Shown here: positions 3,449 to 37,112 of the stretch, in pieces
Layout: each line of letters begins with the position of its first letter
How positions within the stretch are numbered: position 1 is the first letter of the stretch
Assembly: GCA_963731735.1 (NCBI GenBank)
Contig: CAVSWO010000002.1
Coordinates: 334,106-398,105, forward strand
DNA length: 64,000 nt
DNA from: Candidatus Kerfeldbacteria bacterium
Lineage (GTDB): Bacteria > Patescibacteriota > Patescibacteriia > SBBC01 > CAIJZX01
Direction: 5' to 3'
Position numbers and translations under genes: made by a program
The notes under the pieces: generated by a model
What the model was told of the DNA's origin: nothing
The model's input: the letters and a program-made list of their open reading frames with translations, nothing else
Database searches by the model: none

Positions 3449-3640
3449 AGCTACCACCTCCGGTCTGGAATGAGGAACGATTCGACCTTTCCTCAAGTAT
3501 AGCACCAACGCGGCGGCTGCCTAGCCGGGTTGGCAGTACCGGGGAGCGGGTGTATACTGTCTATAGATGTTGAATGTACGCCTAATTTCAACCAACGCCC
3601 GGGCTGACGGGCGGTTTTGTCATTAAATCGAATACGCTCT

Positions 3641-4279
3641 ATGCGCAAAACCTCATTAATTCTCGGAACAGCCGCGCTGTTGTTACTTGGCGCCGCTTGT
3701 ACCAAAACCGTCAACACGAATCAAACCACGAATGATGACCACGCGATGGAAGATTCGAATGGGAATACGAATCAGGCTATGGAAAACCAAAATAGTAATT
3801 CAGCGGTCAAGTCGGAGGACAATACCAACGTCATGCATGATGAAGAGATGATGAATGATACCACCAAGCGCAATGCCAACGAATCCGACGATGCTGCGGT
3901 GGTTACTTCGAACGGAAGTCTAACGGTTACCAAACCGGAAAAAGACGCGGATGTTGAATCGCCGTTTGCGGTGGAAGGAAAATCATCCGCCACCACGGTC
4001 TATGTTCGACTAAAGAGCGCGTCGGGCAAGGAGTTGTTTACCGTACCAGTGACGGTTCGCGATGGCGCGTACCATGTGAATCTCACCTACCAGGTAACCA
4101 ACACCACCAACGGCGTGGTTGAAGTTTTTGAGAAGGACGCGTCCGGTAACGAAACCTTGCTGACCAGCGTCACGATCACCCTCAAGACGGAAAGCAGCGA
4201 TACCACAAATTCTAACGACAACGAAAATAGCAATTCGAACGACAATACCAATAGTGACGATTCTGGGAGCGACAGCTAA
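3641..4279 (+). CDS. secreted/lipo-protein with N/T/D-rich low-complexity regions and an Ig-like (GerM/Gmad2-like) beta domain
   Basis: Signal peptide MRKTSLILGTAALLLLGAAC; central ~100 aa beta-rich segment flanked by N/T/S/D repeats. Confidence 0.55.
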   Translation: MRKTSLILGTAALLLLGAACTKTVNTNQTTNDDHAMEDSNGNTNQAMENQNSNSAVKSEDNTNVMHDEEMMNDTTKRNANESDDAAVVTSNGSLTVTKPEKDADVESPFAVEGKSSATTVYVRLKSASGKELFTVPVTVRDGAYHVNLTYQVTNTTNGVVEVFEKDASGNETLLTSVTITLKTESSDTTNSNDNENSNSNDNTNSDDSGSDS

Positions 4280-4407: not shown

Positions 4408-4484
4408 GGGCGATTAGCTCAGGTGGTTAGAGCGCGTCACTGATAATGACGAGGTCCGAGGTTCGAATCCTCGATCGCCCACCA
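4408..4484 (+). tRNA. tRNA-Ile (anticodon GAT)
   Basis: Acceptor GGGCGAT/ATCGCCC, anticodon loop CTGATAA, T-loop GGTTCGAATCC, encoded CCA. Confidence 0.9.
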
Positions 4485-8730: not shown

Positions 8731-10179
8731 TTAGGCGGTTGGAAGGGTTGGCGGCTGATTTGCGCGCTGACCGATAATTTCTCGAATGGTTTGGAACGAA
8801 ATGGCGCGGGTTACAATCAGTAAGCTCACGTACGTTACGGCGCTGAGCGTCAGGGACAGCCAAATAGTTTGTGCTCGCAGCACCCAGGCCACTAAGCCCA
8901 GGCCAATCGTTGATACTAGTGTGGCGGGCAAACTCCGCCACTGCAATCGAAAATGCATAACCCGTAATATTAATACGTAACCAACAATCGCGGTCAACGC
9001 CTCGGTAATAATGGTTCCGGTGGCGGCGCCGATATATGAAAAACGGGGGATTAAAATGAGATACAACGTAACACCAATCACGGCCACACTCAGATACGTC
9101 CAAACCATCTGTCGTTGTCGGTTAATAATCGTGACGGCATGGCCCGAGAGACTGTTCAGGAAGAGCGCTACCACCGCGATTAATAAGAGACGCAATATCG
9201 GGGCCGCGGGCGCGTAAGCTTGTTGTCCAATCGCCACTAAAATCGGCTCGGCTAATATCCAACCACCCACGACAATCGGGAGCGCCGCCATGACCAGTAA
9301 CTCGAAACCTTTTTGGAAAATACGTTGAAAGTCTTGGTTGTGTTGGTGCGCAAAGGCTGCTCCGAGGGCCGGCAGGAGTAACCCCACGAACATGATCGGA
9401 AAGGTGTTAAGAATTTCCAACACTTTGTAGGCGGCACCGTATAATCCGACATCGTAGCTCGAAGCAAAAATTGAAAGGAAAATCGTATCGATACGGAAGT
9501 AGATTAAATTCAGTACAATTGAAATCGCAACCGGCCAGGTATCGTGCAGAATTGTTTTCCAGTAGAAAAAATTAAAAAGCGGCCGGAAGCGCGTGTAGCC
9601 GCGGGCAGCAAACCACACTATCAACAGGTTTACCAAACTGCCGGCGACCACCGACAACATTACCTGTGCCAGGCTGCCGCCCAGGCTAACCACTGCAATA
9701 ATTCCGCCCAGCAACGCTACTCGGCCGATCAATTCGGCCAAGGCCACCCGACCCATGGCCAGACGAGTTTGAAAAATTCCGACCAGCAACTGCGTGGCCG
9801 CAATCGCTACAAATGACAAACTGCCGATCCAAATTGCCGAACGGACCGCGGCACTATACGGCATCAACAACGCCAGCAGCGCCCCCAGGCCCAGGATGAT
9901 GGCCGCCGACACCCAGCGCAATCCCAATAGATTCCCGACCACGAACCCCGTGTCCGCATTCGGTTTTGTCAGTTCGCGAATCAGCATTAAATACAGCCCC
10001 AGGTCGGCCAAAACCGAAAAAAATCCGAGGTACGCCATCGCCGTGGTATAGGCGCCAAACCCGCTGGGCTCAAGGTAGCGTTGCAGTAATCCAACGGTTA
10101 CCAGGCCAAACGCCGTCCCCGCAACTTTACCAAGAAATTGGATGATCGTATTGCGCCCGACCGCTTGTACAAAACTCAT
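8731..10179 (-). CDS. wzx: Wzx-type oligosaccharide flippase / polysaccharide biosynthesis protein (MOP superfamily)
   Basis: ~14 TM helices, typical N-terminal region. Confidence 0.75.
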   Translation of the reverse strand: MSFVQAVGRNTIIQFLGKVAGTAFGLVTVGLLQRYLEPSGFGAYTTAMAYLGFFSVLADLGLYLMLIRELTKPNADTGFVVGNLLGLRWVSAAIILGLGALLALLMPYSAAVRSAIWIGSLSFVAIAATQLLVGIFQTRLAMGRVALAELIGRVALLGGIIAVVSLGGSLAQVMLSVVAGSLVNLLIVWFAARGYTRFRPLFNFFYWKTILHDTWPVAISIVLNLIYFRIDTIFLSIFASSYDVGLYGAAYKVLEILNTFPIMFVGLLLPALGAAFAHQHNQDFQRIFQKGFELLVMAALPIVVGGWILAEPILVAIGQQAYAPAAPILRLLLIAVVALFLNSLSGHAVTIINRQRQMVWTYLSVAVIGVTLYLILIPRFSYIGAATGTIITEALTAIVGYVLILRVMHFRLQWRSLPATLVSTIGLGLVAWVLRAQTIWLSLTLSAVTYVSLLIVTRAISFQTIREIIGQRANQPPTLPTA

Positions 10180-14799: not shown

Positions 14800-15257
14800 G
14801 CCTCTTCCTCTTCCGTAATGGTGATAGTTGGTTCGGCCGGTCGTTCAATCTTCGGGAGCATCACGCGCAAAATACCGGCTTTGATGTTGGCGGTGACATT
14901 ATTGGCATCAACGTCAACCGGCAATATAATCGTCCGGGAAAATCCACCCCAGTAGCATTCCTGATAGAGAAAGGTTCCGATTGATCCCTGATCGTCTACC
15001 CGGCGTATACCCTTAATAGTCACCACATCATCATTCACCGTAATATCTAGGTCTTCCGCCCGAACACCGGCGATAGCGGCGCGAATCACAATGTTGTTGG
15101 CGGTGTCTTCATAGACATCAACCGCCAGTTGTCCGGAGTAGTCTGCTTCGGACCAGGTATTTGCCTCGCGTGCTTCATCGGCCGCGGCCGCGAGCTCAGC
15201 CACATAATCTTTGGCCTCGGCGACGTCCGGTGATGGTGTTTTTTCTTTCTTTGGCAT
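14796..15257 (-). CDS. Hsp20/alpha-crystallin family small heat shock protein
   Basis: Alpha-crystallin domain ...NIVIRAAIAGVRAEDLDITVNDDVVTIKG...GGFSRTIILP. Confidence 0.85.
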   Translation of the reverse strand: MPKKEKTPSPDVAEAKDYVAELAAAADEAREANTWSEADYSGQLAVDVYEDTANNIVIRAAIAGVRAEDLDITVNDDVVTIKGIRRVDDQGSIGTFLYQECYWGGFSRTIILPVDVDANNVTANIKAGILRVMLPKIERPAEPTITITEEEEA

Positions 15258-15374
15258 AGCCCGTTAGAAATCTACTTAGGTAGTAAGTATCGCTCCTTAA
15301 TGTCCGGCCCGCATTGAAAGGAAATTTCTAACGGGCTATGCGCGCAGAATAGCATAAATCGGCGCCGTTCTCAA
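15258..15374 (-). promoter_or_regulatory. hsp20 promoter (TTGAGA-N17-TATTCT) plus a 14-bp perfect inverted repeat bracketing the whole 5' leader
   Basis: IR arms agcccgttagaaat 15258-15271 / atttctaacgggct 15324-15337; AAGGAG SD sits in the enclosed loop. Confidence 0.4.
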
Positions 15375-15424
15375 GTGATTGGGCAAAAATGTTTGGTAGG
15401 GGCTAGTGGAGGTTATCAGAACTA

Positions 15425-15946
15425 CTATCCTTGCCTCTGTAAGTAAGACGCTCGATCAAGCAGGGTTTTCGTACTCTGAACCCGATCAATAAAAAGTGTG
15501 CCTTCTAAATGATCATATTCGTGCTGAATGATCCGGGCCAACAAACCTTTGGCTTTGATATGAAACCATTCGCCTTTTTGATCTTGTGCCTTTACTTCAA
15601 TTGCACTGGGGCGCTTTACCTTGCCGAATAGATCCGCATGGGCAACGCTCCCACAGCCCTCATACCCATCCGTTTGAATTCTCGATTTACGGATAATGAC
15701 TGGATTAATGAAAACTATCTCTCCTTCTTGGCCTTTTTGAGTTCGAAATCTCGTAGATCGAGGATATGCGATAAAAATACACAAACCAACGCCAATCTGC
15801 GGTGCGGCAATACCAACTAAAGCTTCCCGACGCATGGCTAGGTTTAGTCGATTGAGAAGTCTTTTTGTTATAGCACTTTTTGGATTACGAACCTTTTTCG
15901 CCTTTGAGCGAATTATCCTCTCTCCGATTTGAGATATCTTTTCCAT
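15425..15946 (-). CDS. def: peptide deformylase
   Basis: GIAAPQIG, EGCGS, QHEYDHLEG motifs. Confidence 0.9.
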   Translation of the reverse strand: MEKISQIGERIIRSKAKKVRNPKSAITKRLLNRLNLAMRREALVGIAAPQIGVGLCIFIAYPRSTRFRTQKGQEGEIVFINPVIIRKSRIQTDGYEGCGSVAHADLFGKVKRPSAIEVKAQDQKGEWFHIKAKGLLARIIQHEYDHLEGTLFIDRVQSTKTLLDRASYLQRQG

Positions 15947-15950
15947 CAAA

Positions 15951-16256
15951 TTACCGATCTTTTTTGACTTGTCTTTTAGCAATGGCCCCAGCAAACAATC
16001 TTATTGCCGATCGTTTCTCTTTGCTGTAAATAATTGGCACACCAATCAATTGTTTACATCCTGAACAAACGAGTTTAGCGCCCTCACGAATTTCTCCTTT
16101 AGAGTCAGTGATTCGGTCGGTATACAGTCGTTTCAAAAGACCTGGTCCGTCTTTTTGATAGAAGCAAAGAAATTGATTGCACGATTCGCAATACAATTTT
16201 AGCAAACGGGACTTTCCTCCCCTACTGCGCCTAAATTTGTCAGATTTGAGCTTCAC
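15951..16256 (-). CDS. small zinc-ribbon protein (2x CxxC), hypothetical
   Basis: CESC...CSGC; basic. Confidence 0.45.
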   Translation of the reverse strand: MKLKSDKFRRSRGGKSRLLKLYCESCNQFLCFYQKDGPGLLKRLYTDRITDSKGEIREGAKLVCSGCKQLIGVPIIYSKEKRSAIRLFAGAIAKRQVKKDR

Positions 16257-16687
16257 TTTAATGTATCTACAAATGCTTTGATAGTTGGGGAGAAGTGTTG
16301 GAAAATCATATACAAACTTTCGGCTTCTTTTTGCTCTCCTATGACTGACAAATCTTTTCCGAGACCATATGCGACGCCAGCCTCGATGTGGGCTGATTTT
16401 CCGGCTGGCAGTAACAAAATGACGTGTTTGGAATTCTTCAAGGCCTCCATATCTACGTCAAAAACCCTTTTTACCTCTGGGTCAGTTTGCCAGTTCGGGA
16501 TGTTTTCGAATTGCTCCATAAAGACTTCGGGGTCGTGGTTTGGATCGATCGTTTTCAATTGGTACCCTTTCCCATCACCCTCTAAAAAACTATATACAGT
16601 TTTCCCTTTCTGACGAATCTGCTGGACGAGTTCCTTTACTTGATCCTTATTTCTCCAACGTGAAGCTACAAAATAGTCGTATTCCAT
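16253..16687 (-). CDS. nucleoside 2-deoxyribosyltransferase-like protein
   Basis: HIEAGVAYGLGK motif and overall pattern; from memory. Confidence 0.45.
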   Translation of the reverse strand: MEYDYFVASRWRNKDQVKELVQQIRQKGKTVYSFLEGDGKGYQLKTIDPNHDPEVFMEQFENIPNWQTDPEVKRVFDVDMEALKNSKHVILLLPAGKSAHIEAGVAYGLGKDLSVIGEQKEAESLYMIFQHFSPTIKAFVDTLK

Positions 16688-16761
16688 AAAAAAAGTATAC
16701 CACGGTTCTAACCTAAGGTTGCCCTATCACGATAGGGTCTGTAAACATTGATGAAATCCTT

Positions 16762-16781
16762 TGGCAGCCCCACGGGGAATC
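16762..16781 (+). repeat. 20-bp direct repeat of the tRNA-Glu 3' end (19/20 identical to 24974..24993), attR-like island boundary
   Basis: tggCagccccacggggaatc vs tggTagccccacggggaatc, same orientation. Confidence 0.6.
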
Positions 16782-16782
16782 C

Positions 16783-16944
16783 TCCTCCTTCGCGGCTCGC
16801 GACCGTGCGCGGTTCCCGCTCGCCACTCACCCGGAGCCGGGGTTCCTCATCGAGCGCCACCGGCGCTCGCTTCGGATACCCTTCGATTCGCTGTGTAACT
16901 AATCCGGCGACTCGCCGCCACTGGCGTGACGACAACTCGCCGGA
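16783..16944. other. GC-rich (~65% GC) highly structured ~160-bp element flanked by a 10-bp direct repeat TTGGCAGCCC (16761-16770 and 16945-16954); candidate ncRNA or miniature insertion
   Basis: Multiple perfect hairpins (GAGCGCC-ACC-GGCGCTC; AATCCGGCGA...TCGCCGGATT); composition differs sharply from flanks. Confidence 0.3.
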
Positions 16945-16996
16945 TTGGCAGCCCTAACTATAAATTGTTGGAACCGGGTAGTTGAGGAGCTGTCAG

Positions 16997-17626
16997 CTAT
17001 ACCAGCACCATCCACAAAGTTCCGGCCAGCACGGGTACAGTGACATTATCAAACCCAAGCGGGGTATACCGTTCTGTAAGGGTAAGGATTGGCGGTGCAA
17101 CGATTGCCGCAATCCATGACCCATGCGCAGACGGTACAAGTACGAACCCAATCCCGATGAGTAATGAAACGCTTAAAAAAACTATCGAACCACGTATCCC
17201 TTCCCACCAGGGCCGCTGTGGGAGTATTCGCTTGTTTTTCCCAAATAATGCGGCTAAAGAATCAGAAAAGGTTAACACCAGTATTCCGTACACGAAGGCA
17301 GACATGTGGTTTGGGAGAGTTAAGGCAGCTGTGGCGGCAACACCAATCGGAAAAGCCATTGCACCGTGCGTTTGGCGGACGACTTGATGAATGCCCCCAA
17401 ACCACTGTTTTCGCTTTGTAATCACAAGAACTGCCGTGAAACCACTCGCAATGATGTAAATACCGATGCGATCTACGAGTAACGGCAGAAAAAGAGTGAA
17501 CACTCCGCTGAGAACGTGCGCGAGGCGCCTAGTGCCTTCGGCTTGAAAAATTCGTTTCGAATACAGTAACTGGGAGATACCTAAAATAATTAGATATACA
17601 CCCGCGGACATAGCTAGATTGATCAT
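16997..17626 (-). CDS. CdsA/CarS/polyprenol-kinase-like CTP-transferase family membrane protein
   Basis: TFSDSLAALFGKNKRILPQRPWWEGIRGS resembles the CTP_transf_1 signature (SD..A...GK.....P.KTWEG); ~7 TM helices. Confidence 0.5.
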   Translation of the reverse strand: MINLAMSAGVYLIILGISQLLYSKRIFQAEGTRRLAHVLSGVFTLFLPLLVDRIGIYIIASGFTAVLVITKRKQWFGGIHQVVRQTHGAMAFPIGVAATAALTLPNHMSAFVYGILVLTFSDSLAALFGKNKRILPQRPWWEGIRGSIVFLSVSLLIGIGFVLVPSAHGSWIAAIVAPPILTLTERYTPLGFDNVTVPVLAGTLWMVLV

Positions 17627-18540
17627 AAGAGTTTTGAAAATACCGCAAATGACCGTATCGATTCTACGCCTGGATATGGCATTGCATTAACATTATTTCC
17701 TGTCCGGACAAGCAGGTACTCCACGCTGGTAATGCCATTCTGGAGCGCATCCTGATGAGCTTTACACGCAAGGGCGATGGCAAGATGTTTGCGTTGATAG
17801 TCTGGTAACACAGCCACTGTTTTCATTAATAGAACTTCGTCTCGCTGTGGATCCCGTAATGTATACAGGTATCCGACTATGTGTGTCTCGTGTCGCGCAA
17901 CATATACGCTTGCGCGTGATTGTTTGATCATTGGAAGATACAAATATGCGAACTCATCCCATGATAAATCAACCAGTCCCTTTTCGCCCACAAAAGCCTC
18001 TCGGGAAATTGTATACAGCGCCTGCAATTCATTTGTTAAAACATCTATTGATGCACATTCGATGTCGAACCCATCGTGTTGGATTTGAGGAAGTACCGGT
18101 TCGATGAGTGATAAGAGTGTCGGAATGTCTGTACGACGAAAACTCTCGTACGTACGTAGGTGGTGGTAACCATGCAAGATAAGCGTGTTTGGATACCAGA
18201 ATGGGTTGCTTGGTTCAAGTGACGTCGGGGTCTCGCCGCTTATTTGAAATCGGTGACTGTGCCACATGGTGAAATCAACGGGCCCAACAACTTCCTGGCA
18301 ACCGAAGGATTTGAGCCAGGCTTCTGCGTCACGAAGGGACGATACATCTGCCTCCGGTGATGATGCCGAAAAATGACCAACGAAACCAATTTTGTTTTTG
18401 GACGCAGCAAGCCGCCGATCAATAAATGCAGTGAGATGGAATGACCCATCGCCTGAAGAAAATTCCTTCCACTGCCCAAACTGGTGCCAGGGGTTTTCTT
18501 TGGCAAGCCAGGATTGATACTGCTTTTCATGTGTAGTCAT
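17623..18540 (-). CDS. GNAT-family acetyltransferase-like protein
   Basis: VAVLPDYQRKHLAIALA (motif A-like); start trimmed to ATG 18540. Confidence 0.5.
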   Translation of the reverse strand: MTTHEKQYQSWLAKENPWHQFGQWKEFSSGDGSFHLTAFIDRRLAASKNKIGFVGHFSASSPEADVSSLRDAEAWLKSFGCQEVVGPVDFTMWHSHRFQISGETPTSLEPSNPFWYPNTLILHGYHHLRTYESFRRTDIPTLLSLIEPVLPQIQHDGFDIECASIDVLTNELQALYTISREAFVGEKGLVDLSWDEFAYLYLPMIKQSRASVYVARHETHIVGYLYTLRDPQRDEVLLMKTVAVLPDYQRKHLAIALACKAHQDALQNGITSVEYLLVRTGNNVNAMPYPGVESIRSFAVFSKLL

Positions 18541-18551
18541 AATCGCAAGAG

Positions 18552-20171
18552 TTAACGGAGAATTTTCACAACCCCGGTCGAAGCGTTGACCTCGAGCATT
18601 TGACCGGTTTGCACCTGCTGTGTGATGCCTGGTAACTGTACCACGCACGGGATACCGCATTCGCGTGAAACAATCGAGGCGTGCGAGAGAATACCTCCGT
18701 ATTCGACCGCGACACCGGAGACAAGACCGAACAGGGGTGTCCAACCAGGATCGGTGTGCCGAGCAACCAGAATGTCTCCCTTTTGAACCAATGATGCGTC
18801 AGGAAAATCGAGCACCACCGCACGTCCACGAATGGTACCGGGCGATGCGCCGATTCCTTTCCACGTGCTCGTACCTTGGCCCTTTTTGTGTCGGCTTAGG
18901 TCTTCCACAATTTTACCATCAACCTCAAAAAAACGATCGGGTGCGGGTGTGTATGCATATGCTGCGAATTGATTTTGTCGTTCCTGAATCTTCGTATGGA
19001 GTAGCTCTTTCGACATGGTTCCATCAATAATACGCGGTATTTCTTCAAGGGTACACCAAAAGATATCTTTTGAAGCCTTGAGTTGGTGGTGCCGTTTAAG
19101 ATCTTTGCCGATCGCTAAGAATAGAGTTCGAACTGCTGAAAAAACACGTGCACGAAGGAGGCGAGTTTGTTCACGATATGCAATGTGTCGTTCGATTCGA
19201 CTTTGAGAGTTGTGTTTGGAGGCTTGCTTGTCAGGACCAAAGTCAATTTTCTGAGAACTTATCGGCGAGCTATTTTTACCTGTATAGGCACGGATGAGGT
19301 TAAAGAGTACGCTTGGTTGATCCTGTAGCGGTGGGGTCTCGAGTTTGAGCTCATTGGGGAGTCGCGCCCCGTACGTTTTGAGGTATTGGCCAAATACTTT
19401 TCCTAAGTCTGAAGGTGGATTCGAGCAGAGATAATTCCATAATTCAACATCTCGTTTTTGTACCAGCAATGTATGGGCAGTCTGGTCATCGTGAATCGCC
19501 CCTTGGAGTTGTTGCAGTCCAGAATATTGACGCGGCAACGTTGTTTGCCATGTGAATCCGAGGAGAGAGCCGTCCTGTTTTTCCCCAACATACGTCATAA
19601 GGAGAAAATCATTGTCTGTGGTGATGTGCCACATAGGCAAAAGCGTATCCGCAAACCGATTGAATTCTACCCAGAGCTGTTCCGCTTCGCGTAAAGTGCT
19701 AGCTTTTTCATTCAAATCGCGCAATATTGTTTCAACCCGACGTTGGAATCGCTCAATATCCCTCCGAAAAAAAACGACCCGATAAAGAAGGACGAAAGGG
19801 TAGAAGAAACGGAACCACCAAGGGGCGTGAGTTTCACGGAGCAATGTTTGAACCTGTGGCACGGTCAGCATCCGCTCGAGATTACGGACATTTTTCCGAT
19901 AGCCAGGAAACAAAGACGCAAACCGGTACCAATTCAACATATGATAGTAGAGCCGGCCTGATCGCGCCCCGACGAGATTGGAAAAAACAGTATCGTATTG
20001 CTGGATAGTTCTCCAGGGCAATCCAGATGCATGCGCCATACCGCGGTATACCTCGCGATAGACTCGCATCGCGAATGATGTCGTCAGGGGAGTTGTTACT
20101 CCCGCATAGCTCTCGGAAATATTTGCGTTGTCCCAAAGAATTCGTTCATCCATAAAACCAGAGCACCCCAT
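18552..20171 (-). CDS. PEP-utilizing enzyme family protein (PpsA/rifampin-phosphotransferase-like); C-terminal mobile His domain
   Basis: GGILSHASIVSRECGIPCVV near C-terminus; N-terminal NISESYAGVTTPLTTSF. Confidence 0.65.
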   Translation of the reverse strand: MGCSGFMDERILWDNANISESYAGVTTPLTTSFAMRVYREVYRGMAHASGLPWRTIQQYDTVFSNLVGARSGRLYYHMLNWYRFASLFPGYRKNVRNLERMLTVPQVQTLLRETHAPWWFRFFYPFVLLYRVVFFRRDIERFQRRVETILRDLNEKASTLREAEQLWVEFNRFADTLLPMWHITTDNDFLLMTYVGEKQDGSLLGFTWQTTLPRQYSGLQQLQGAIHDDQTAHTLLVQKRDVELWNYLCSNPPSDLGKVFGQYLKTYGARLPNELKLETPPLQDQPSVLFNLIRAYTGKNSSPISSQKIDFGPDKQASKHNSQSRIERHIAYREQTRLLRARVFSAVRTLFLAIGKDLKRHHQLKASKDIFWCTLEEIPRIIDGTMSKELLHTKIQERQNQFAAYAYTPAPDRFFEVDGKIVEDLSRHKKGQGTSTWKGIGASPGTIRGRAVVLDFPDASLVQKGDILVARHTDPGWTPLFGLVSGVAVEYGGILSHASIVSRECGIPCVVQLPGITQQVQTGQMLEVNASTGVVKILR

Positions 20172-21024
20172 ACATTGAGAAGAAAATAGCGATACAGACG
20201 CCCTGATATACCCGCACAGATTTCTGGGTTAGATTTCGTATGTAGCGACTCGCAGAATAACTATAGGCTGCAAAAAGTATACACCAAAGCAGTGCTGGCA
20301 CCCACTGCTGGAGGATTACGAGACCTAATGTAATCATTGTTACCAGAATAACGCCACCACCGATAACTGCCCACACCGGCCCGAGTTGGGCCGAATAGGT
20401 ATCACGACTTATGTTTTCGTTTGCTGGAATACGTATCTTTCGTATCCATTCTAAAAATACCATGCTGGCATATGCAAACACCAAAAATATGATACTGGGT
20501 GAATGCAATCCCATTGTGCCGAGCGCAATAATCATAATTACCCACAAGCCCAAAAACGATTGGATTGTCATGACTGCATTATAAAGAAAGAAGCGTGATC
20601 GTAGCTGATCCCCCAACAAAAAATCTTGACCGGCAATGGCAGTAAGGAGTAGTACAGCTGCCATGTGTGGGAGAAAACTCAAATTAATAAACGCAACAAT
20701 ACATAGTTCAAGCATCATGAGGACGAACGCAATTATTCGTAGCTCACGTGCCTGAACTAAGCCCCGCGGTAATGGTCGCTGTTTATAGTAGAGACGGTCA
20801 TGGTTTTCATCGCGGATCTCGTCAAACAGACGAATATGGCCGAGATAGAACACCCCGAGAACAACTAATCCAACGCGGGGCAGAATATCGAACCCCAGCA
20901 TCCATTGATCTGCGTTGATGTGATGCAAAGTCTCGGTATACGCTGCGGTGGTCAACAATAAGAAACCTATCGGGAACCGCTCCGATTGAAACCGCCAGAT
21001 CTTCCGGATAAATGAACTATCCAT
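20146..21024 (-). CDS. UbiA-family prenyltransferase
   Basis: DEIRDENHD...RPLPRG (NDxxDxxxD ... RPLxxG) and 8-9 TM helices. Confidence 0.6.
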   Translation of the reverse strand: MDSSFIRKIWRFQSERFPIGFLLLTTAAYTETLHHINADQWMLGFDILPRVGLVVLGVFYLGHIRLFDEIRDENHDRLYYKQRPLPRGLVQARELRIIAFVLMMLELCIVAFINLSFLPHMAAVLLLTAIAGQDFLLGDQLRSRFFLYNAVMTIQSFLGLWVIMIIALGTMGLHSPSIIFLVFAYASMVFLEWIRKIRIPANENISRDTYSAQLGPVWAVIGGGVILVTMITLGLVILQQWVPALLWCILFAAYSYSASRYIRNLTQKSVRVYQGVCIAIFFSMYGVLWFYG

Positions 21025-21027
21025 GAT

Positions 21028-22098
21028 TTATCCTATACGCTCAAGAATAAAGAAGTTGCCATACATAAACCCATTGTCTTGATTCCAGAGCTTTGATGAT
21101 TCGTCCTGTAAAATGCGGAATCCGAACTTCGGAAGATCCACAATTGGTGGGTTAGCCAGATTTATCCAAAAACAGACGCGTCCACCAAGAGATACATGTT
21201 TACCAAGAACTGCAAAAAAATCCCGAAACTGACGATCGGAAAATCCTTCAAAAATGTCAGATAGATGAACTTTAGTGAAGGTCCCAAGAGGTGGAAGTGC
21301 TTGTACAACATCTTGTGTAATGAGTTGCCCATCATGACGAAGCCGCTGCCAAAAGTGCCATGCATCATGACGAAAGTATGGTGGGATGGTCTGTTGATAA
21401 CGACCCGTCAATATATACTCGATTAACCAGTTTGAGTGCACGGGAATTTCAGTTAGCCCACGAAATGCTCGTTGCGCATAAATTGACCCCGACGAATCAT
21501 GCGCGTATTTACGGAAAGCGTAATCACGCCCGAATTGATGTAATAATTGTTTTCCATAAAAAAATTTTAATCCTAATCGCCAACGCCACGTATTCCACAC
21601 TCGGCGATAGAGCGCAGACTGTTCTTCCAGTGATTGAGCTTGGAGAATTTGGTGTATGTTTTTTCGCGAGACCAAAAGCGGTAGAATGTATCTAGAAAAA
21701 AATTGAAAATATCTTTCAAGGCGCCCGGTATGGATAATTCCTTGAGCAATATCTTTCAACCGTGTATTCCAAAATTGTCTATCGTTTGGATCTACGATAG
21801 GTAATACGTGGTGCTGATATACGTTAGCGCGACTGCGTGAGTCATGAATGCCAATAAAAGCAAGAAACTCTTTATATGACAGCGCTTCTGCTGCGGCGGC
21901 GATAAGTTTTACTAGCCGAGTCTGATCGGGATTTCGATCAATGGAAACGAGTTGGTGTGGATGATCAGACAACACAGCGACGGGCGCCCCGCCAGCGGCA
22001 GTCACTGTCAAAACACGATCATCGGGCTGTACTACAAGCGCGCGTCGAAGGATGTCGGTATCCTCCCAGGTTTGTGTATATGGTATGCGATTTTTCAC
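21028..22098 (-). CDS. DUF3419 / BtaA-like (SAM:diacylglycerol 3-amino-3-carboxypropyl transferase-like) protein
   Basis: N-terminal YTQTWEDTDIL motif; from memory. Confidence 0.45.
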   Translation of the reverse strand: MKNRIPYTQTWEDTDILRRALVVQPDDRVLTVTAAGGAPVAVLSDHPHQLVSIDRNPDQTRLVKLIAAAAEALSYKEFLAFIGIHDSRSRANVYQHHVLPIVDPNDRQFWNTRLKDIAQGIIHTGRLERYFQFFSRYILPLLVSRKNIHQILQAQSLEEQSALYRRVWNTWRWRLGLKFFYGKQLLHQFGRDYAFRKYAHDSSGSIYAQRAFRGLTEIPVHSNWLIEYILTGRYQQTIPPYFRHDAWHFWQRLRHDGQLITQDVVQALPPLGTFTKVHLSDIFEGFSDRQFRDFFAVLGKHVSLGGRVCFWINLANPPIVDLPKFGFRILQDESSKLWNQDNGFMYGNFFILERIG

Positions 22099-22111
22099 AA
22101 TATCCGGTGTG

Positions 22112-23254
22112 CTACCCGGCCGGCTGTCGTAAGAGCACCCGGAACAAATTCATGGAGCCATATTCAAATCCTACCCTTGCGCCATGCATCCAAAGATACC
22201 ATAAACGATAGAAGGGCCGACCAAACGCGCGTTCAATCTCTTCCTGATGACTTTCGAGATTATGAATCCACGCATTCATGGTATAGACATAATCCAATGT
22301 ATCATCTCGGAACTCTTCAATCCGGAACCCGGCCTCTGTGGCGGCCGCCATGATTTCATCGCGGCTGGGAAGATAGCCCCCGGGAAATACGTATTTCTGT
22401 GTCCAACGGTCAAGTGGTCGCGGTTGGTATCGGCCGGTCGATTGCACGACTAGGGGTGCCCCGGGTTTTAGGCGTTTACCAACCTTTTGAAAATATTTCT
22501 GGAGATGTTTTCTCCCCACATGCTCAAGTGATTCCAACATCATAATCCCGTCATACTTTTCGTTGGGCATATTGGAGATCATGTCTCGATTCTGTACCGA
22601 GACGTGCTTAGCTAAATCGTGTTTACGAATCTGTTCACGACTATAGGCGACCTGTTCAGAGCTCCGGGTAATACTCAAAATGTTCCAACCATAGTTCTCT
22701 GCTGCAAACAGCGCAAAATTTCCCCAGCCACTTCCGAGGTCTAATATTAACGCATCCTTGGGAAGTGCTAGCCAAGTACTCAGGAACCGGAGTTTATTCT
22801 CCTGAGCCTCAATAAGGGAATCTGTCTGGGTGGCATATTTCCCTCCGGAATATGACATGGAATCCTTACCTAGCAACAACTCAAAGAATGTATTTCCAAT
22901 ATCGTAATGAAATGAAATTTGACGCTGGCGAGACTGTGGTTGGCTGAGAGACGCAAGAAAGGCTTGCATTTTATTCCTCCGTGATGGATGGTTGCCTTTA
23001 AATGTGTGGCGAAGTCGTAAATATGCATCGATATCTCCATCGATGTTTACCGCCCCCTCCATGTATGACTCGCCAAAGCCGAGCGATCCCTGAGTTATTA
23101 TTCGCTGTACTGTTTCTGAATTCTTGATGGATATTGAAAATGCCGTGGGCCCTGCTTGACCAAACCGCATTTCTTTTCCGTCCCAATATTTTATAAGAAA
23201 CCCAGGACCTTCGTAAGTTTGGAAGTAGTCTTCAAGTACCTGACGATTATCCAT
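22112..23254 (-). CDS. cyclopropane-fatty-acyl-phospholipid synthase family SAM-dependent methyltransferase
   Basis: LILDLGSGWGNFALFAAENYG (SAM motif I) and CMAS-type flanking regions. Confidence 0.8.
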   Translation of the reverse strand: MDNRQVLEDYFQTYEGPGFLIKYWDGKEMRFGQAGPTAFSISIKNSETVQRIITQGSLGFGESYMEGAVNIDGDIDAYLRLRHTFKGNHPSRRNKMQAFLASLSQPQSRQRQISFHYDIGNTFFELLLGKDSMSYSGGKYATQTDSLIEAQENKLRFLSTWLALPKDALILDLGSGWGNFALFAAENYGWNILSITRSSEQVAYSREQIRKHDLAKHVSVQNRDMISNMPNEKYDGIMMLESLEHVGRKHLQKYFQKVGKRLKPGAPLVVQSTGRYQPRPLDRWTQKYVFPGGYLPSRDEIMAAATEAGFRIEEFRDDTLDYVYTMNAWIHNLESHQEEIERAFGRPFYRLWYLWMHGARVGFEYGSMNLFRVLLRQPAG

Positions 23255-23973
23255 ATACTAAATCTAGCGGTTTCGATTCCAAAAACATTCTCTCGTCGGA
23301 CACTATGCCGCGAGCGTTTTTTTCTGGATCGAAATACTCCTATGACGGTGAGTAAGAGAATAAACTGAGCGATTGCCATTCCCCAGCCAACCAGATACAT
23401 TAGCGTATCTTGTACATCCATGACACCAACAAGCAATAACACGCCTCCAATAAAAAGCGATACGAGAGCGATTGAGAATGTTTGTGCACTAGTTTTATCG
23501 CTTTCCCGGATATCTTCACTGGTAAGCTGTACTGCGTGGAGCACAACGGCAGCCATCAACACGATATACATGAAGCTTACGATATCGCTGGGTTGAAAGT
23601 AAAAGAGACCATCTGTCGAAAACCCTGGATTTGATGGCAAAGCTAGGCGAACAAACCAAAGTACCACCGCATACACCGCCACGGATGCGGTGAGGAGCTG
23701 TTGGGTATTTCGTTGGAGTTTGCTGACTGCCGCGCGCGTAAAAAAGAGTAGCGCGCCAATGTAAACTGCTGCTCCCGCGCTAATCCAAAAATTCAATGAG
23801 TCTCCTGCGGGTTTTGCGATAACGGCTGCTGACCAAACCCCGAAAGCTATGCCGGTCAAAAACAGCCCCCAGCCCATTGCCTTGGTTGTTACAGTTCGAT
23901 GCAGGCGGGGCAACAACAATCCAGCCAGGATTGTAGAAACCGTACTGAAGATGAAAAAGATGATTATTAACAT
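23191..23973 (-). CDS. polytopic membrane protein, hypothetical
   Basis: ~7 TM helices; 3' end overlaps the annotated start of the CFA-synthase ORF (true start of that gene probably internal). Confidence 0.4.
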   Translation of the reverse strand: MLIIIFFIFSTVSTILAGLLLPRLHRTVTTKAMGWGLFLTGIAFGVWSAAVIAKPAGDSLNFWISAGAAVYIGALLFFTRAAVSKLQRNTQQLLTASVAVYAVVLWFVRLALPSNPGFSTDGLFYFQPSDIVSFMYIVLMAAVVLHAVQLTSEDIRESDKTSAQTFSIALVSLFIGGVLLLVGVMDVQDTLMYLVGWGMAIAQFILLLTVIGVFRSRKKRSRHSVRRENVFGIETARFSIWIIVRYLKTTSKLTKVLGFL

Positions 23974-24117
23974 ACAGTTAAGTATTGAAATAAGTGCTTG
24001 AATTATAGCTCAATTCCCATGTAAAGTAAACGAACTTCTTAAGTGATAGTGCCCAGATTGAGTTCCAAAAGGAAGAGCGTGATTGGAGGCTTCTAATAGG
24101 CTCTCTTCTAATCAGTT

Positions 24118-24882
24118 CTACCTTTTAGGTATCGCGGTAACTGGCCTCGCCTGGAGTATTACAATTTGATTTTCCCTTGTGCATGCCCATTCAATATCCA
24201 GGGATTTCCCATAAATATTCTCAATAGTTATGGCCCTTCGTCCAACCTTATTAAGAATTGGCAACACCGTTTCCAAAATAATGGATGAGAATTCTCCGTG
24301 CGACAAGACCTCACAAACACCAGAGTTTTTATTTATTGAAACGGTTAGGGGTGATACCTGTCCACTAACGATTTTATCGCCTAATCCGGGGCTAACCTCG
24401 ATCACAAGTTTTGACACGTCGTTCGTTCGTGGGTCGACCGTAAAACAAATTCCCGAGTATTTTGCATCGATCATTTCTTGCACGATAACCGCCATCCTCA
24501 TGTTTCCTTGTAGGCCAAGGTGTTTACGATATTCTTTAATTCGATGGCTGAAACGAGATTGTGCACACCTTCGAATAAAAGAAAGGGCGTCTTTCATTTT
24601 TACATTAAGGAAGGAGTCAAACATGCCAGCATAGCTCACGCTTTGGCCATCCTCCGAGACGCCTGAACTTCGAACTGCAAACAAGCTATAGGGCTGTAAT
24701 TTCTTCTTTTCTTTCTCCGTCAATATCGTAGAATCACTGATTATATCAATTGTCTCAACGTCTACAACAAAAGTTTTTGGGATCTTTTGACCACCTTGGG
24801 CTAAACGCTGAAGATTAAAAGCTTTGCCACCAATCTGGGAGACAGTGAACTTTGTTTGAGCGGTGATTTCTTTAAGAATCAA
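24118..24882 (-). CDS. PEP synthase/PPDK N-terminal ATP-grasp (PPDK_N) domain protein, stand-alone
   Basis: GGKAFNLQRL...VRSSGVSEDGQSVSYAGMFDSFLNV. Confidence 0.65.
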   Translation of the reverse strand: MILKEITAQTKFTVSQIGGKAFNLQRLAQGGQKIPKTFVVDVETIDIISDSTILTEKEKKKLQPYSLFAVRSSGVSEDGQSVSYAGMFDSFLNVKMKDALSFIRRCAQSRFSHRIKEYRKHLGLQGNMRMAVIVQEMIDAKYSGICFTVDPRTNDVSKLVIEVSPGLGDKIVSGQVSPLTVSINKNSGVCEVLSHGEFSSIILETVLPILNKVGRRAITIENIYGKSLDIEWACTRENQIVILQARPVTAIPKR

Positions 24883-24973
24883 GGTCTCGAAAGGTTGTAA
24901 GCAAAAATAATTTTATCGTTTCAAGCGGCATCTTTATATAGTTTCATACTACCACAAAACGCCAGCATATTTC

Positions 24974-25048
24974 TGGTAGCCCCACGGGGAATCGAACCCC
25001 GATTACCGGCTTGAAAAGCCGATGTCCTAACCGTTAGACGATGGGGCC
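24974..25048 (-). tRNA. tRNA-Glu (anticodon TTC)
   Basis: GGCCCCATCGTCTAACGGTTAGGACATCGGCTTTTCAAGCCGGTAATCGGGGTTCGATTCCCCGTGGGGCTACCA; G1-U72 wobble. Confidence 0.9.
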
Positions 25049-25284
25049 ACGAATTGCTTCAACTCTTTCCGTAGCCGGCCTGATTTCTTGATTTGTAACT
25101 CTCGTCTTCGAGCTTCCCTTTTTGTAGAGAATTCCTCAACCCTTACTACTCTATATGGGCGATATGCCCTTGTCGAGCGCACGTCTCCACGATTATGCTC
25201 GTGGATGCGCTTGCGGGCATCTTTAGAAGATCCTATATAGAGACGGCCGGTCCGAAGGCTTTGTATAATGTAGACTTGGTGCAT
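25027..25284 (-). CDS. small GIY-YIG nuclease-domain protein
   Basis: VYIIQSLRTGRLYIGSSKDARKRIHEHNRG; last ~7 codons overlap the 5' end of tRNA-Glu. Confidence 0.65.
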   Translation of the reverse strand: MHQVYIIQSLRTGRLYIGSSKDARKRIHEHNRGDVRSTRAYRPYRVVRVEEFSTKREARRRELQIKKSGRLRKELKQFVAPSSNG

Positions 25285-35553: not shown

Positions 35554-35640
35554 AGAAAATCCCGGTCAGTGTACCAGTCAGTTTGGCTTCGGTCAACCGC
35601 TATTCGTTGACCAGGGGATATGCTACATTGGCTTCACAAG

Positions 35641-35649
35641 TTATCCACA
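35641..35649 (+). promoter_or_regulatory. perfect DnaA box TTATCCACA in the rpmH-dnaA divergent region (a second, imperfect box TGTGGATTG at 35691)
   Basis: exact consensus 9-mer. Confidence 0.5.
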
Positions 35650-35744
35650 GTATATCAACTTTTTGGCTAATTTTAGCGTTTTTTCTGGCCTGTGGATTGT
35701 GCTATTATGGTCCTTGCGACTCCTTTGGCCTATTGAGTTTCTCA

Positions 35745-37112
35745 ATGAACGACACAAACCAACTCTGGCAGGCGGCGCTGGGGGAACTAGAACTCCACCT
35801 CAGTAAAGCAAACTTCACAACCTGGTTTAAAAACACCTTTATCGCCGAGCATGATGGTCGGCGCGTTGTGGTTGGTGTGCCAAATGGGTTTACCAAGGCC
35901 TGGTTAGAGCAAAAATACCACGAGGCGATTGTCAAAGCGCTCCATCACGCCAGCAATAAATCGGTTGAAGAGGTAAGTTATCGGGTTGAGTCTCCGCAGC
36001 GATCCGCCCAGGCGTCAGCGGACGCGCCAGCTAGTTCTGGTCAACCCGCGGCTCGCCCGGCTGTGTCGGCAACCAGCTCTCAAACACACACGGGTGTAAA
36101 CCCGAAACACACTTTCGAGCATTTTGTGATTGGGAAAGGTAATGAGTTGGCGCGAGCGGCCGCCAAGGCGGTCTCAGACAAGCCTGGCCAGGTCTATAAT
36201 CCGCTCTTTATTTACGGTGGGGTGGGATTAGGAAAAACACACCTTATTCAGGCGGTTGGAAATGAAATTTTGGCACGTGATCCAAATAAGCGAGTGTTGT
36301 ATGTAACCTCGGAGCGCTTTACGAATGAGTTTATTCAGGCAGTTTCGCGCGGGAGCGCGGAAAAGTTCAAGAATTTTTATCGCGGCGTTGATGCGTTGTT
36401 GATCGATGATATTCAGTTCTTATCTGGCAAGGAGGGAACTCAGGAAGAATTCTTTCATACCTTTAATGCGCTCCATCAAGCAAATAAGCAGCTGGTAATT
36501 ACTTCCGACCGGCCGCCGAAGTCGATCGCGGCGCTTGAGGCGCGCCTGCTTTCGCGCTTTGAGTGGGGCATGATAGCGGATATCGCCCAGCCCGACCTTG
36601 AAACTCGGATTGCCATCTTAGAAGCGAAGTGTCGCGAAAAGAATTATCAACTTGAACCGGAGGTGGTTGCCTATGTCGCCTCAACGGTTCAGAGTAACAT
36701 TCGTGAGCTCGAAGGGGCGCTCAACCGCCTAATTGCCTACCACCAGCTCAACAATGCCCAACCGACGCTCGAGGCCGCCAAAAACATCCTGGGGTCGCTT
36801 GCCCAGGCCCCGCGCCGCGGGGGAATTACCCCGAAACAACTGATTCAAACCGTGGCCACCTTTTTTGACCTTTCGATTGAAGACTTGGTTGGCGCCAGCC
36901 GAAAAAAAGAGCTGGTTGAGCCCCGCCAAATTGCCATGTATCTGTTACGCGAAGAATTACGCTCTTCATTTCCGGCTATCGGCAATGAGCTTGGCGGGCG
37001 TGATCACACCACGGCTATGCACGCCTGTACAAAAATCACCAAACAGATTGAGAAAGATGAAAAAACAAAACAGGATGTTTCATTAATTAAGCAGCGCCTG
37101 TACGCGGCTTGA
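35745..37112 (+). CDS. dnaA: chromosomal replication initiator protein DnaA
   Basis: GGVGLGKTHLIQAVGN Walker A, box VII, C-terminal DnaA-box-binding domain; start set at MNDTNQLWQ. Confidence 0.95.
   Translation: MNDTNQLWQAALGELELHLSKANFTTWFKNTFIAEHDGRRVVVGVPNGFTKAWLEQKYHEAIVKALHHASNKSVEEVSYRVESPQRSAQASADAPASSGQPAARPAVSATSSQTHTGVNPKHTFEHFVIGKGNELARAAAKAVSDKPGQVYNPLFIYGGVGLGKTHLIQAVGNEILARDPNKRVLYVTSERFTNEFIQAVSRGSAEKFKNFYRGVDALLIDDIQFLSGKEGTQEEFFHTFNALHQANKQLVITSDRPPKSIAALEARLLSRFEWGMIADIAQPDLETRIAILEAKCREKNYQLEPEVVAYVASTVQSNIRELEGALNRLIAYHQLNNAQPTLEAAKNILGSLAQAPRRGGITPKQLIQTVATFFDLSIEDLVGASRKKELVEPRQIAMYLLREELRSSFPAIGNELGGRDHTTAMHACTKITKQIEKDEKTKQDVSLIKQRLYAA

Follow-up and report, generated by a model that had tools for sequence, protein, structure and literature searches.

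Two genes on the minus strand of a 64-kb stretch of Candidatus Kerfeldbacteria DNA (the whole stretch analyzed, hereafter the window) raise the question of whether proteins encoded some 4 kb apart make up one enzyme and, if they do, what this enzyme is and how its halves came to be separate. The original prediction was that a stand-alone ATP-grasp protein of 254 amino acids (aa) and a 539-aa protein ending in a phospho-His swivel domain (the C-half) are the parts of a split phosphotransferase related to phosphoenolpyruvate (PEP) synthase and PPDK. In the reading that we favor, and to which we assign a probability of about 60%, the two proteins are a two-component dikinase of the rifampin phosphotransferase (RPH) type serving a mobile, lipid-type gene cluster. 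The native ATP-grasp domain of the cluster's dikinase would have been lost and a foreign one captured at the head of the cluster. The coordinates of the genes and of the other features discussed are collected in Table 1.

The predicted stand-alone PPDK_N protein was found as an open reading frame (ORF) on the minus strand. Its sole Pfam match was PPDK_N (E 9.4e-47, 160 bits, cut-off 27), and it spanned positions 5-252 of the 253 in the hidden Markov model (HMM). Among sequences of solved structures, RPH-Lm led the matches for both the 254-aa and the 539-aa proteins, and HpeI (9GOJ) also matched the former (E 2.1e-21). Based on an alignment to 5FBS and 5HV6, Lys22, Arg117, Thr136, and Glu297 of RPH-Lm correspond to Lys20, Arg71, Ser90, and the Glu of a DIEW motif. 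These catalytic columns are invariant or nearly so among fused homologs, and all are kept in the 254-aa protein, with Ser in place of Thr at the Thr136 position. In RPH-Lm, mutagenesis showed that Lys22, Arg117, and Thr136 matter for ATP and that Arg666 and Glu667 matter for the second transfer, as does His825 for catalysis; Glu297 is a Mg2+ ligand whose Ala mutant was still active (PMC4844700).

The phospho-His domain was likewise located where it had been predicted, at the C-terminus of the larger protein. The only Pfam match of this protein was PEP-utilizers (PF00391; residues 463-533, E 8.7e-22), and precomputed annotation places PF27448 (Rph_4th) on its N-terminal part. Overall, it spans HMM positions 13-557 of 571. 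The segment GGILSHASIVSRE pairs residue for residue with GGLMTHGAVIARE, the catalytic loop of RPH-Lm, and His497 is therefore the equivalent of the catalytic His825. His497 is unchanged across 40 homologs and sits 42 residues before the C-terminus; a swivel His within about 50 residues of the C-terminus is a criterion for the RPH type (PMC12167813). Similarly, Arg333-Glu334 aligns with Arg666-Glu667 of RPH-Lm and is invariant in homologs. Translation most likely starts at Met7 (position 20153), giving 533 aa, because public gene calls use this residue and it is invariant in the alignment.

The predicted fold of the C-half agrees with this assignment. An AlphaFold2 model had a predicted local distance difference test score (pLDDT) of 88.5 and a predicted template modeling score (pTM) of 0.90. 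Foldseek aligned it with RPH-Lm (5FBT) over ~580 columns (E 3.7e-20, template modeling score (TM) 0.73), the only whole-length structural match in the PDB. Matches to PPDK, PEP synthase, Enzyme I, and pyruvate kinase were confined to the swivel domain, ~120 residues. A scan of genome contigs with the C-half returned one irrelevant gammaproteobacterial match and nothing else.

Checked against Pfam profiles, with the catalytic His included, both domains were matched and neither protein held the complete set by itself. Together, the proteins tile one enzyme, as predicted, and the observation goes far beyond chance. NF004881, an NCBIfam model of 898 positions for the fused family PRK06241.2-2, was matched at positions 322-890 by residues 11-538 of the 539-aa protein, nearly its whole length (331.8 bits), and in its N-terminal third by the 254-aa protein (144.9 bits). 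On the fused homolog P0005, the 254-aa protein covers residues 46-221 and the 539-aa protein residues 229-758, without overlapping or leaving anything out. The 64-kb window contains no second copy of either domain. The genes are separated by 3.97 kb and four intact genes, and the three domains do not occur in one polypeptide. Joined colinearly into a chimera modeled on an alignment of fused homologs, the two proteins gave a pLDDT of 85.5 and a pTM of 0.70, with each domain confident. The chimera matched full-length RPH-Lm (E 1.4e-36), the RPH ATP domain 5HV6, and HpeI 9GOJ; with this pTM and a TM to RPH of 0.5, it carries little information on the interface. As a model, it shows a complete three-domain set rather than the docking of two proteins.

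The domain content also bears on the kind of dikinase. A RIF-BD-like module in the C-half stands where the TIM barrel that binds PEP or pyruvate would be, and Pfam detected no such barrel in either protein or in any protein of the cluster. The scores of the two proteins against TIGR01418 (122 and 69 bits, cut-off 739.75) and TIGR01828 (19 and 24 bits, cut-off 843) were far below those expected of PEP synthase and PPDK. Together, these results point to an RPH-type small-molecule dikinase. The rifamycin-inactivating equivalogs NF041857 and NF000283 were not reached either (114/123 bits versus 999 and 77/83 bits versus 1700), and the PigC and RedH equivalogs of NCBIfam scored 116-140 bits against cut-offs of 1300-1350, so the pair is none of those enzymes. 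Judged by sequence, the two proteins are together one dikinase of the RPH/PRK06241 type and not PpsA or PPDK. A role in central metabolism, as a PEP synthase or PPDK that is split in two and uses pyruvate, is hardly credible: homologs are indeed named 'phosphoenolpyruvate synthase' and 'pyruvate, water dikinase' in databases, but the catalytic His is C-terminal rather than central, the structural matches to these enzymes cover the swivel only, and the domain content refutes the identity. PpsA and PPDK share homologous ATP-grasp and swivel domains with the pair, whereas their TIM barrel and central His are both absent from it. The label 'phosphoenolpyruvate synthase' on such proteins is wrong, which calls for caution among annotators.

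The claim that the ATP-grasp and swivel domains are fused in known enzymes proved incomplete. PpsAB (phenylphosphate synthase, Thauera), PasAB (phenylphosphoamidate synthase), CreHI, and HpeHI (Rhodococcus) are characterized two-component dikinases of this architecture (PMC12167813, PMC7500099). In HpeHI, one protein is the ATP-grasp (crystal structure 9GOJ) and the other has a RIF-BD-like domain and a C-terminal swivel His; a His-to-Gln mutant was dead, the components formed no stable complex and associated only transiently, and the large subunit, HpeH, alone shuttled phosphate between substrates (PMC12167813). Stand-alone proteins of ≤330 aa, moreover, made up 76 of the 150 best phmmer matches to the 254-aa protein, and separate ATP-grasps of such a size are common in metagenomes. 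The split is thus not the unprecedented arrangement that had been supposed; non-adjacent halves also have precedent. By itself the split adds little, two-component dikinases having been known biochemically since phenylphosphate synthase.

The window pair resembles PpsAB, CreHI, HpeHI, and PasAB in having a separate ATP-grasp protein and a RIF-BD-like/swivel protein. It differs from PpsAB and HpeHI in that its genes are not adjacent, and from systems of the PpsAB/HpeHI type in the size of the ATP-grasp (~250 versus 340-390 aa), in its context (a biosynthetic lipid-type cluster versus aromatic catabolism), and in the discordant phylogenies of its two halves. PRK08296 sub-models matched the C-half only in the swivel region, residues 422-538, with at most 95 bits against cut-offs of 578-730. 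We take these NCBIfam models to represent the PpsA/HpeH-like family; on that assumption, the C-half and the PpsA/HpeH large subunits would be of independent origin. Further two-component dikinases were seen at L094 (5558-9152) and L095 (9596-13014), with an ATP-grasp of 245-268 aa, a swivel-containing protein of 484-500 aa, and one or two unrelated genes between the halves; both adjoin HIT-family genes.

Fused enzymes provide the other comparison. Once the window proteins are concatenated, they have the same three domains in the same order as RPH-Lm (5FBS/5FBT/5HV1; PMC4844700), and the equivalents of K22, R117, T136, E297, R666, E667, and H825 are kept. Unlike RPH-Lm, the pair consists of two polypeptides, is 18-21% identical to it, and has no resistance context. 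PigC and RedH, prodiginine-condensing enzymes of the PRK06241 superfamily, similarly place an RPH-like ATP-grasp and swivel in a biosynthetic cluster, where ATP activates an intermediate rather than serving detoxification or catabolism; unlike the window pair, they are fused single chains, and the chemistry of their clusters is unrelated.

We examined the genomic context of the C-half using 80 loci obtained from a metagenome scan with the C-half alignment (30-35% identity) and annotated with HMMs derived from the window and from the relatives found first; many of these contigs are incomplete. Of the 80 loci, 79 encoded one or more of four partners, namely DUF3419, UbiA, the GNAT-like protein, and the membrane protein mem209, and 65 encoded three or more. 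The GNAT-like gene is the most constant companion of the dikinase, occurring in 72 loci and lying immediately downstream of it in 58; its homolog also adjoins fused P0005. UbiA and DUF3419 were each found in 68 loci, mem209 in 59, and a second membrane protein, mem260, in 33. Three gene orders recurred. Type A runs membrane protein, DUF3419, UbiA, dikinase, GNAT-like, and mem209, frequently accompanied by a methyltransferase of the CMAS type and an acyltransferase of the PlsC type. Type B has an additional radical-SAM enzyme, PlsC, and a DAGK_cat lipid kinase, and type C runs UbiA, dikinase, DUF3419, and mem209. The window cluster has the type A order. Its C-half is an ordinary type A member whose nearest relative, P0002 (51% identity), belongs to a syntenic cluster, L002.

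In total, the cluster was seen in at least 85 loci sampled from varied metagenomes, of bacteria and DPANN archaea, some of them beside integrases; one locus is from a Woesearchaeota archaeon, and one type B locus is bounded by an integrase and a primase-polymerase. Literature searches for DUF3419 with UbiA and for BtaA with UbiA found no paper on the cluster. The DUF3419-UbiA-dikinase-GNAT-mem209 cluster is thus widespread and apparently uncharacterized; this context of the dikinase and the origin of its ATP-grasp are the new elements here. BtaA is the S-adenosylmethionine (SAM):diacylglycerol 3-amino-3-carboxypropyl transferase, and a BTA1 homolog is annotated as DUF3419 (PMC10685587). Because BtaA moves the 3-amino-3-carboxypropyl group of SAM to diacylglycerol, the cluster seems to encode the synthesis of a modified membrane lipid or head group, with a core role for the dikinase. 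The presence of an RPH-like dikinase beside BtaA-like and UbiA proteins in turn implies phosphoryl activation in such a pathway.

The same loci show how the dikinase is usually encoded. The ATP-grasp was fused to the C-half in one ORF in 78 of the 80, and the pathway therefore normally includes an ATP-grasp. The two were adjacent and split in none of the 80. A separate ATP-grasp gene within the cluster was found only in the window and in L010 (99.95% identity), where the same organism was assembled independently and the identical gene pair of 254 and 533 aa is called. Finally, six clusters (L002, L003, L012, L013, L066, and L091) had no ATP-grasp ORF within ~10 kb, and no degenerate remnant was detected upstream of the orphan C-halves at E <0.8 with filters off.

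One pair of relatives indicates how such orphans may arise. At the DNA level, L003 is 80-83% identical to L011, with complete synteny, and the two C-halves share 84% identity; the 764 bp that code for the ATP-grasp in L011 are replaced by 55 bp in L003. The ratio of nonsynonymous to synonymous substitution rates (dN/dS) of the orphan L003 C-half, 0.12, equals that of neighboring genes. In cluster relatives, then, loss of the ATP-grasp can apparently be recent and clean. We also noted that two type B clusters lacking an ATP-grasp encode a homologous helical protein of ~200 aa directly upstream of the C-half (L012 9408-10010; L066 ~9400-10007). Two motifs of the E-x-x-H type occur in it, EEA[RQ]H ... 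REED[AS]H, together with a faint Rubrerythrin match; this ferritin-like di-iron protein occupies the ATP-grasp slot.

The relatives of the 254-aa protein lie outside the cluster. An exhaustive phmmer search returned 10,484 proteins at E ≤1e-10; the top 24 were all stand-alone, at 193-300 aa, and the closest relatives were all stand-alone proteins of ~250 aa. For five stand-alone relatives, at seven loci, a swivel protein was encoded by a gene of its own in the vicinity, in some cases with one or two genes intervening. The 254-aa protein scored 150-213 bits against stand-alone ATP-grasps, at most 109 bits against any of the ~80 cluster-fused domains, and at most 100 against those of type A. In a neighbor-joining tree of 283 ATP-grasp sequences (226 columns, 100 bootstraps), it was sister to the stand-alone ATP-grasp of a TetR operon, with 39-44% identity to the ATP-grasps of these operons, and cluster-fused domains were absent from its clade in 99 of the 100 replicates. 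The phylogenies of the ATP-grasp and the C-half of the window are thus discordant. The pair tiles one enzyme, as predicted, but does not appear to be one enzyme cut in two, since the ATP-grasp is foreign by phylogeny to the cluster's fused domains.

The TetR operon represents the source lineage of the window ATP-grasp, although its partner proteins differ from those of the window. It encodes TetR, a 315-aa protein, a 120-aa swivel (PF00391), an isochorismatase, an NDK-like protein, and a 250-aa ATP-grasp (L005-L009; for example, L005 2423-5157, in which the NDK-like protein is absent, and L006 6556-10759). An ATP-grasp of the window's type therefore works with a separately encoded swivel domain. 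These three-part operons sit in mobile or defense islands and were seen only in metagenomes. The 315-aa protein had no detectable relation to RIF-BD (hhalign probability 0.1%). The window's swivel domain (18552-18866) was, of 87 cluster C-halves, the nearest to the TetR-type stand-alone swivels, at 74 bits; other cluster swivels scored at most 70 bits (median 60.5). Co-adaptation to a captured ATP-grasp might be read into this similarity, a hint too weak to use.

Two histories could account for these data. In the simplest, the ancestral cluster dikinase would have been a single fused chain that lost its native ATP-grasp domain, like the dikinases of several relatives. A foreign stand-alone ATP-grasp would then have been captured from an unrelated multi-component dikinase operon and placed at the head of the cluster, where it would act in trans. 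The second history is a simple fission of the cluster's own dikinase at the inter-domain linker, the ATP-grasp part having moved 4 kb upstream. Consistent with fission, the two proteins tile fused homologs exactly at the linker, and the ATP-grasp shares its short type, ~250 aa, with the N-terminal domains of the cluster's fused dikinases. Nevertheless, the similarity ranking and the tree led us to reject fission as an origin, and no locus held the adjacent split that would be its intermediate; we consider it improbable.

Nor do the halves look like the products of decay, in which a truncated dikinase and a stray ATP-grasp fragment would persist without function. The source is a small genome of the candidate phyla radiation (CPR), a neighboring cluster gene carries a 1-nt indel between the two assemblies, and the exact 254-aa sequence was not recovered from the protein database, all of which might be expected of decay. 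Set against this, both ORFs are full length for their families, every invariant and catalytic residue is retained, the L010 assembly calls the same two genes, and seven contiguous cluster genes are intact and tightly spaced. We therefore regard decay as very improbable. A pseudogene or frameshift origin of the split was likewise rejected, because the halves are each full length and have four intact genes between them.

Homology with RPH, PpsAB, and HpeHI suggests how the pair would work. The 254-aa protein would bind MgATP, and the swivel domain of the 533/539-aa protein would dock transiently on it. His497 would attack the β-phosphate, the γ-phosphate would be lost as inorganic phosphate (Pi), and AMP would leave, generating phospho-His. 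The charged swivel would return to the RIF-BD-like domain, where Arg333 and Glu334 would position the phosphoryl group for the acceptor. As in HpeHI-type enzymes, the expected reaction is thus ping-pong, with the β-phosphate of ATP passing to His and then to the acceptor, AMP and Pi as products, and the halves acting in trans. The likeliest acceptor is a hydroxyl group of a lipid or head-group intermediate associated with the membrane and produced by the BtaA-like, UbiA, GNAT-like, and methyltransferase enzymes. Alternatively, phosphorylation may activate an intermediate for later substitution, as in PigC-type enzymes. Of the predicted route from ATP through His to a pathway intermediate rather than pyruvate, the RPH-type architecture and the low PEP-synthase/PPDK scores bear out the general scheme; the intermediate itself is conjecture.

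Several points weigh against a captured ATP-grasp that charges the C-half. The tree of the ATP-grasps was built by neighbor-joining on 226 columns and not by maximum likelihood. The ATP-grasp gene is separated from the other cluster genes by a promoter-like site and may not be co-transcribed with them. L002, which is the nearest syntenic relative, and five other clusters are without an ATP-grasp, and one in cis may therefore be unnecessary. Since the DNA examined spans 64 kb, another partner for either half could lie elsewhere in the genome. Lastly, we infer the physical partnership of the window pair, its chemistry, and its substrate.

These points are compatible with the main rival explanation, in which the orphan C-half functions without the 254-aa protein, through substrate-to-substrate phosphotransfer or with another donor. 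The 254-aa gene would then be an unrelated passenger of the island, or its product would serve a partner encoded elsewhere in the genome. The purifying selection on the L003 orphan, the ability of HpeH by itself to move phosphate between substrates, and the different evolutionary origin of the ATP-grasp all favor it, as do the six clusters without an ATP-grasp and the promoter-like site. In contrast, the retention of a fused ATP-grasp in nearly all clusters indicates that charging by ATP is normally needed, and the 254-aa protein has kept all of its catalytic residues. Its gene is adjacent to the cluster, on the same strand, and in the same low-GC island, and no other swivel protein is encoded in the window. 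No function is known for a stand-alone ATP-grasp that lacks a swivel partner. We judge independent function of the C-half to be unlikely, while giving it real weight.

If a foreign ATP-grasp does charge the C-half, the locus amounts to a natural experiment, in which a lost domain was replaced in trans by a non-orthologous one, that could reveal the specificity of ATP-grasp/swivel docking. The lipid cluster apparently spreads horizontally, here into a CPR bacterium. CPR bacteria are largely without lipid synthesis of their own, and the cluster's place in a Patescibacteria genome, within an island of low GC, is informative about how such reduced organisms tailor their membranes. The points of interest are the xenologous ATP-grasp and the conserved, uncharacterized cluster. 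More tentatively, and with the odds in our view against it, RPH-type dikinases may be modular in evolution at large, with orphan C-halves recharged by any compatible stand-alone ATP-grasp. The abundant ~250-aa ATP-grasps of metagenomes would then be exchangeable ATP-charging modules, and this locus a xenologous replacement in trans caught in the act. Equally tentatively, the cluster may make an undescribed phosphorylated or aminocarboxypropyl-type membrane lipid.

Table 1. Features of the window at and around the dikinase genes.
Feature	Coordinates	Strand	Remarks
mem209, polytopic membrane protein, 209 aa	16997..17626	-	start overlaps GNAT-like stop by 4 nt
GNAT-like N-acyltransferase, 305 aa	17623..18540	-	Pfam Acetyltransf_1 E 1.7e-8
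Substrate-binding (RIF-BD-like, Rph_4th) and C-terminal phospho-His swivel subunit (C-half)	18552..20171	-	539-aa ORF, sixth of eight
UbiA-family prenyltransferase-like membrane protein, 292 aa	20146..21024	-	Pfam UbiA E 1.2e-8, 35 bits (cut-off 34.2)
DUF3419/BtaA-like protein, 356 aa	21028..22098	-	Pfam DUF3419 E 6.6e-52
CMAS-family SAM methyltransferase, 380 aa	22112..23254	-	Pfam CMAS E 3.7e-60
mem260, conserved membrane protein, 260-aa ORF	23191..23973	-	homologs in L002 and L013
Promoter-like site TTTACT-17-TATAAT, 10/12	24002..24030	-	consensus match only, in 144-bp gap
Stand-alone ATP-grasp (PPDK_N) subunit	24118..24882	-	254 aa, TTG start, first of eight ORFs
tRNA-Glu(UUC)	24974..25048	-	ARAGORN and Rfam; upstream edge of low-GC island

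The eight ORFs of the cluster occupy 16997-24882 of the minus strand with tight spacing (Table 1). The dikinase genes had been predicted to bracket the lipid genes. They do not, since two further cluster genes, those of the GNAT-like protein and mem209, lie downstream of the C-half. The UbiA-like gene is immediately upstream of the C-half. The ATP-grasp gene is followed by a gap of 144 bp before the cluster continues; promoter-like sites in the region were not more numerous than expected from shuffled sequence.

Of the lipid-type proteins, the DUF3419 protein had no NCBIfam match. The CMAS-family protein resembles cyclopropane-fatty-acyl-phospholipid synthase (NF008686, 227 bits, below the cut-off of 400). 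The betaine-lipid (DGTS) pathway pairs a BtaA homolog with a BtaB-type N-methyltransferase, whereas here the sole methyltransferase beside the DUF3419 protein is of the CMAS type. The GNAT-like protein begins at Met69 (position 18540) of a 373-aa ORF, in agreement with the public call of 305 aa, and yielded no assignment narrower than generic GNAT.

The two membrane proteins were compared with their homologs. For mem209, neither Pfam (16 members searched), NCBIfam, nor a PDB profile search gave a sequence match. Its family (~205 aa) has the invariant residues R33, H37, R84, G88, D122, G129, E185, D193, N194, and P198. The motifs D-x3-A-x3-G, K-[ST]-x-E-G-S, and D-N-x3-P may recall CTP-dependent polyprenol/phytol kinases. 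The mem260 ORF differs between the assemblies at ~23325, where CC in the window corresponds to CCC in L010 before an A7 run. As a result, the ORF is 260 aa in the window, running into the CMAS gene, and 223 aa in L010; homologs have 221 and 213 aa. The true length is probably about 223 aa, and the indel is a probable sequencing error or strain variant.

The cluster lies in a stretch of low G+C content (GC), 0.41-0.50 across ~15000-25100 compared with 0.53-0.59 on both flanks. Its boundary on the side of the ATP-grasp gene is tRNA-Glu, which lies a short distance upstream of that gene; this setting suggests horizontal acquisition. The island also holds a peptide deformylase gene (15425-15994) and an ORF of 144 aa (16253-16687) with faint similarity to nucleoside 2-deoxyribosyltransferase. 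The ValRS encoded in the window was closest, at 61-65% identity, to proteins named Patescibacteria and Candidatus Kerfeldbacteria, which points to a CPR host near Kerfeldbacteria; the source contig measures 822,872 bp. Elsewhere in the window is a complete bacterial 16S rRNA gene (1249-2746), followed by an ORF with a Gmad2 Ig-like domain (3617-4279), tRNA-Ile (4408-4484), and then protein genes. No 23S gene follows the 16S gene, and the rRNA genes are therefore unlinked. The window also contains dnaA, at 35583-37112.

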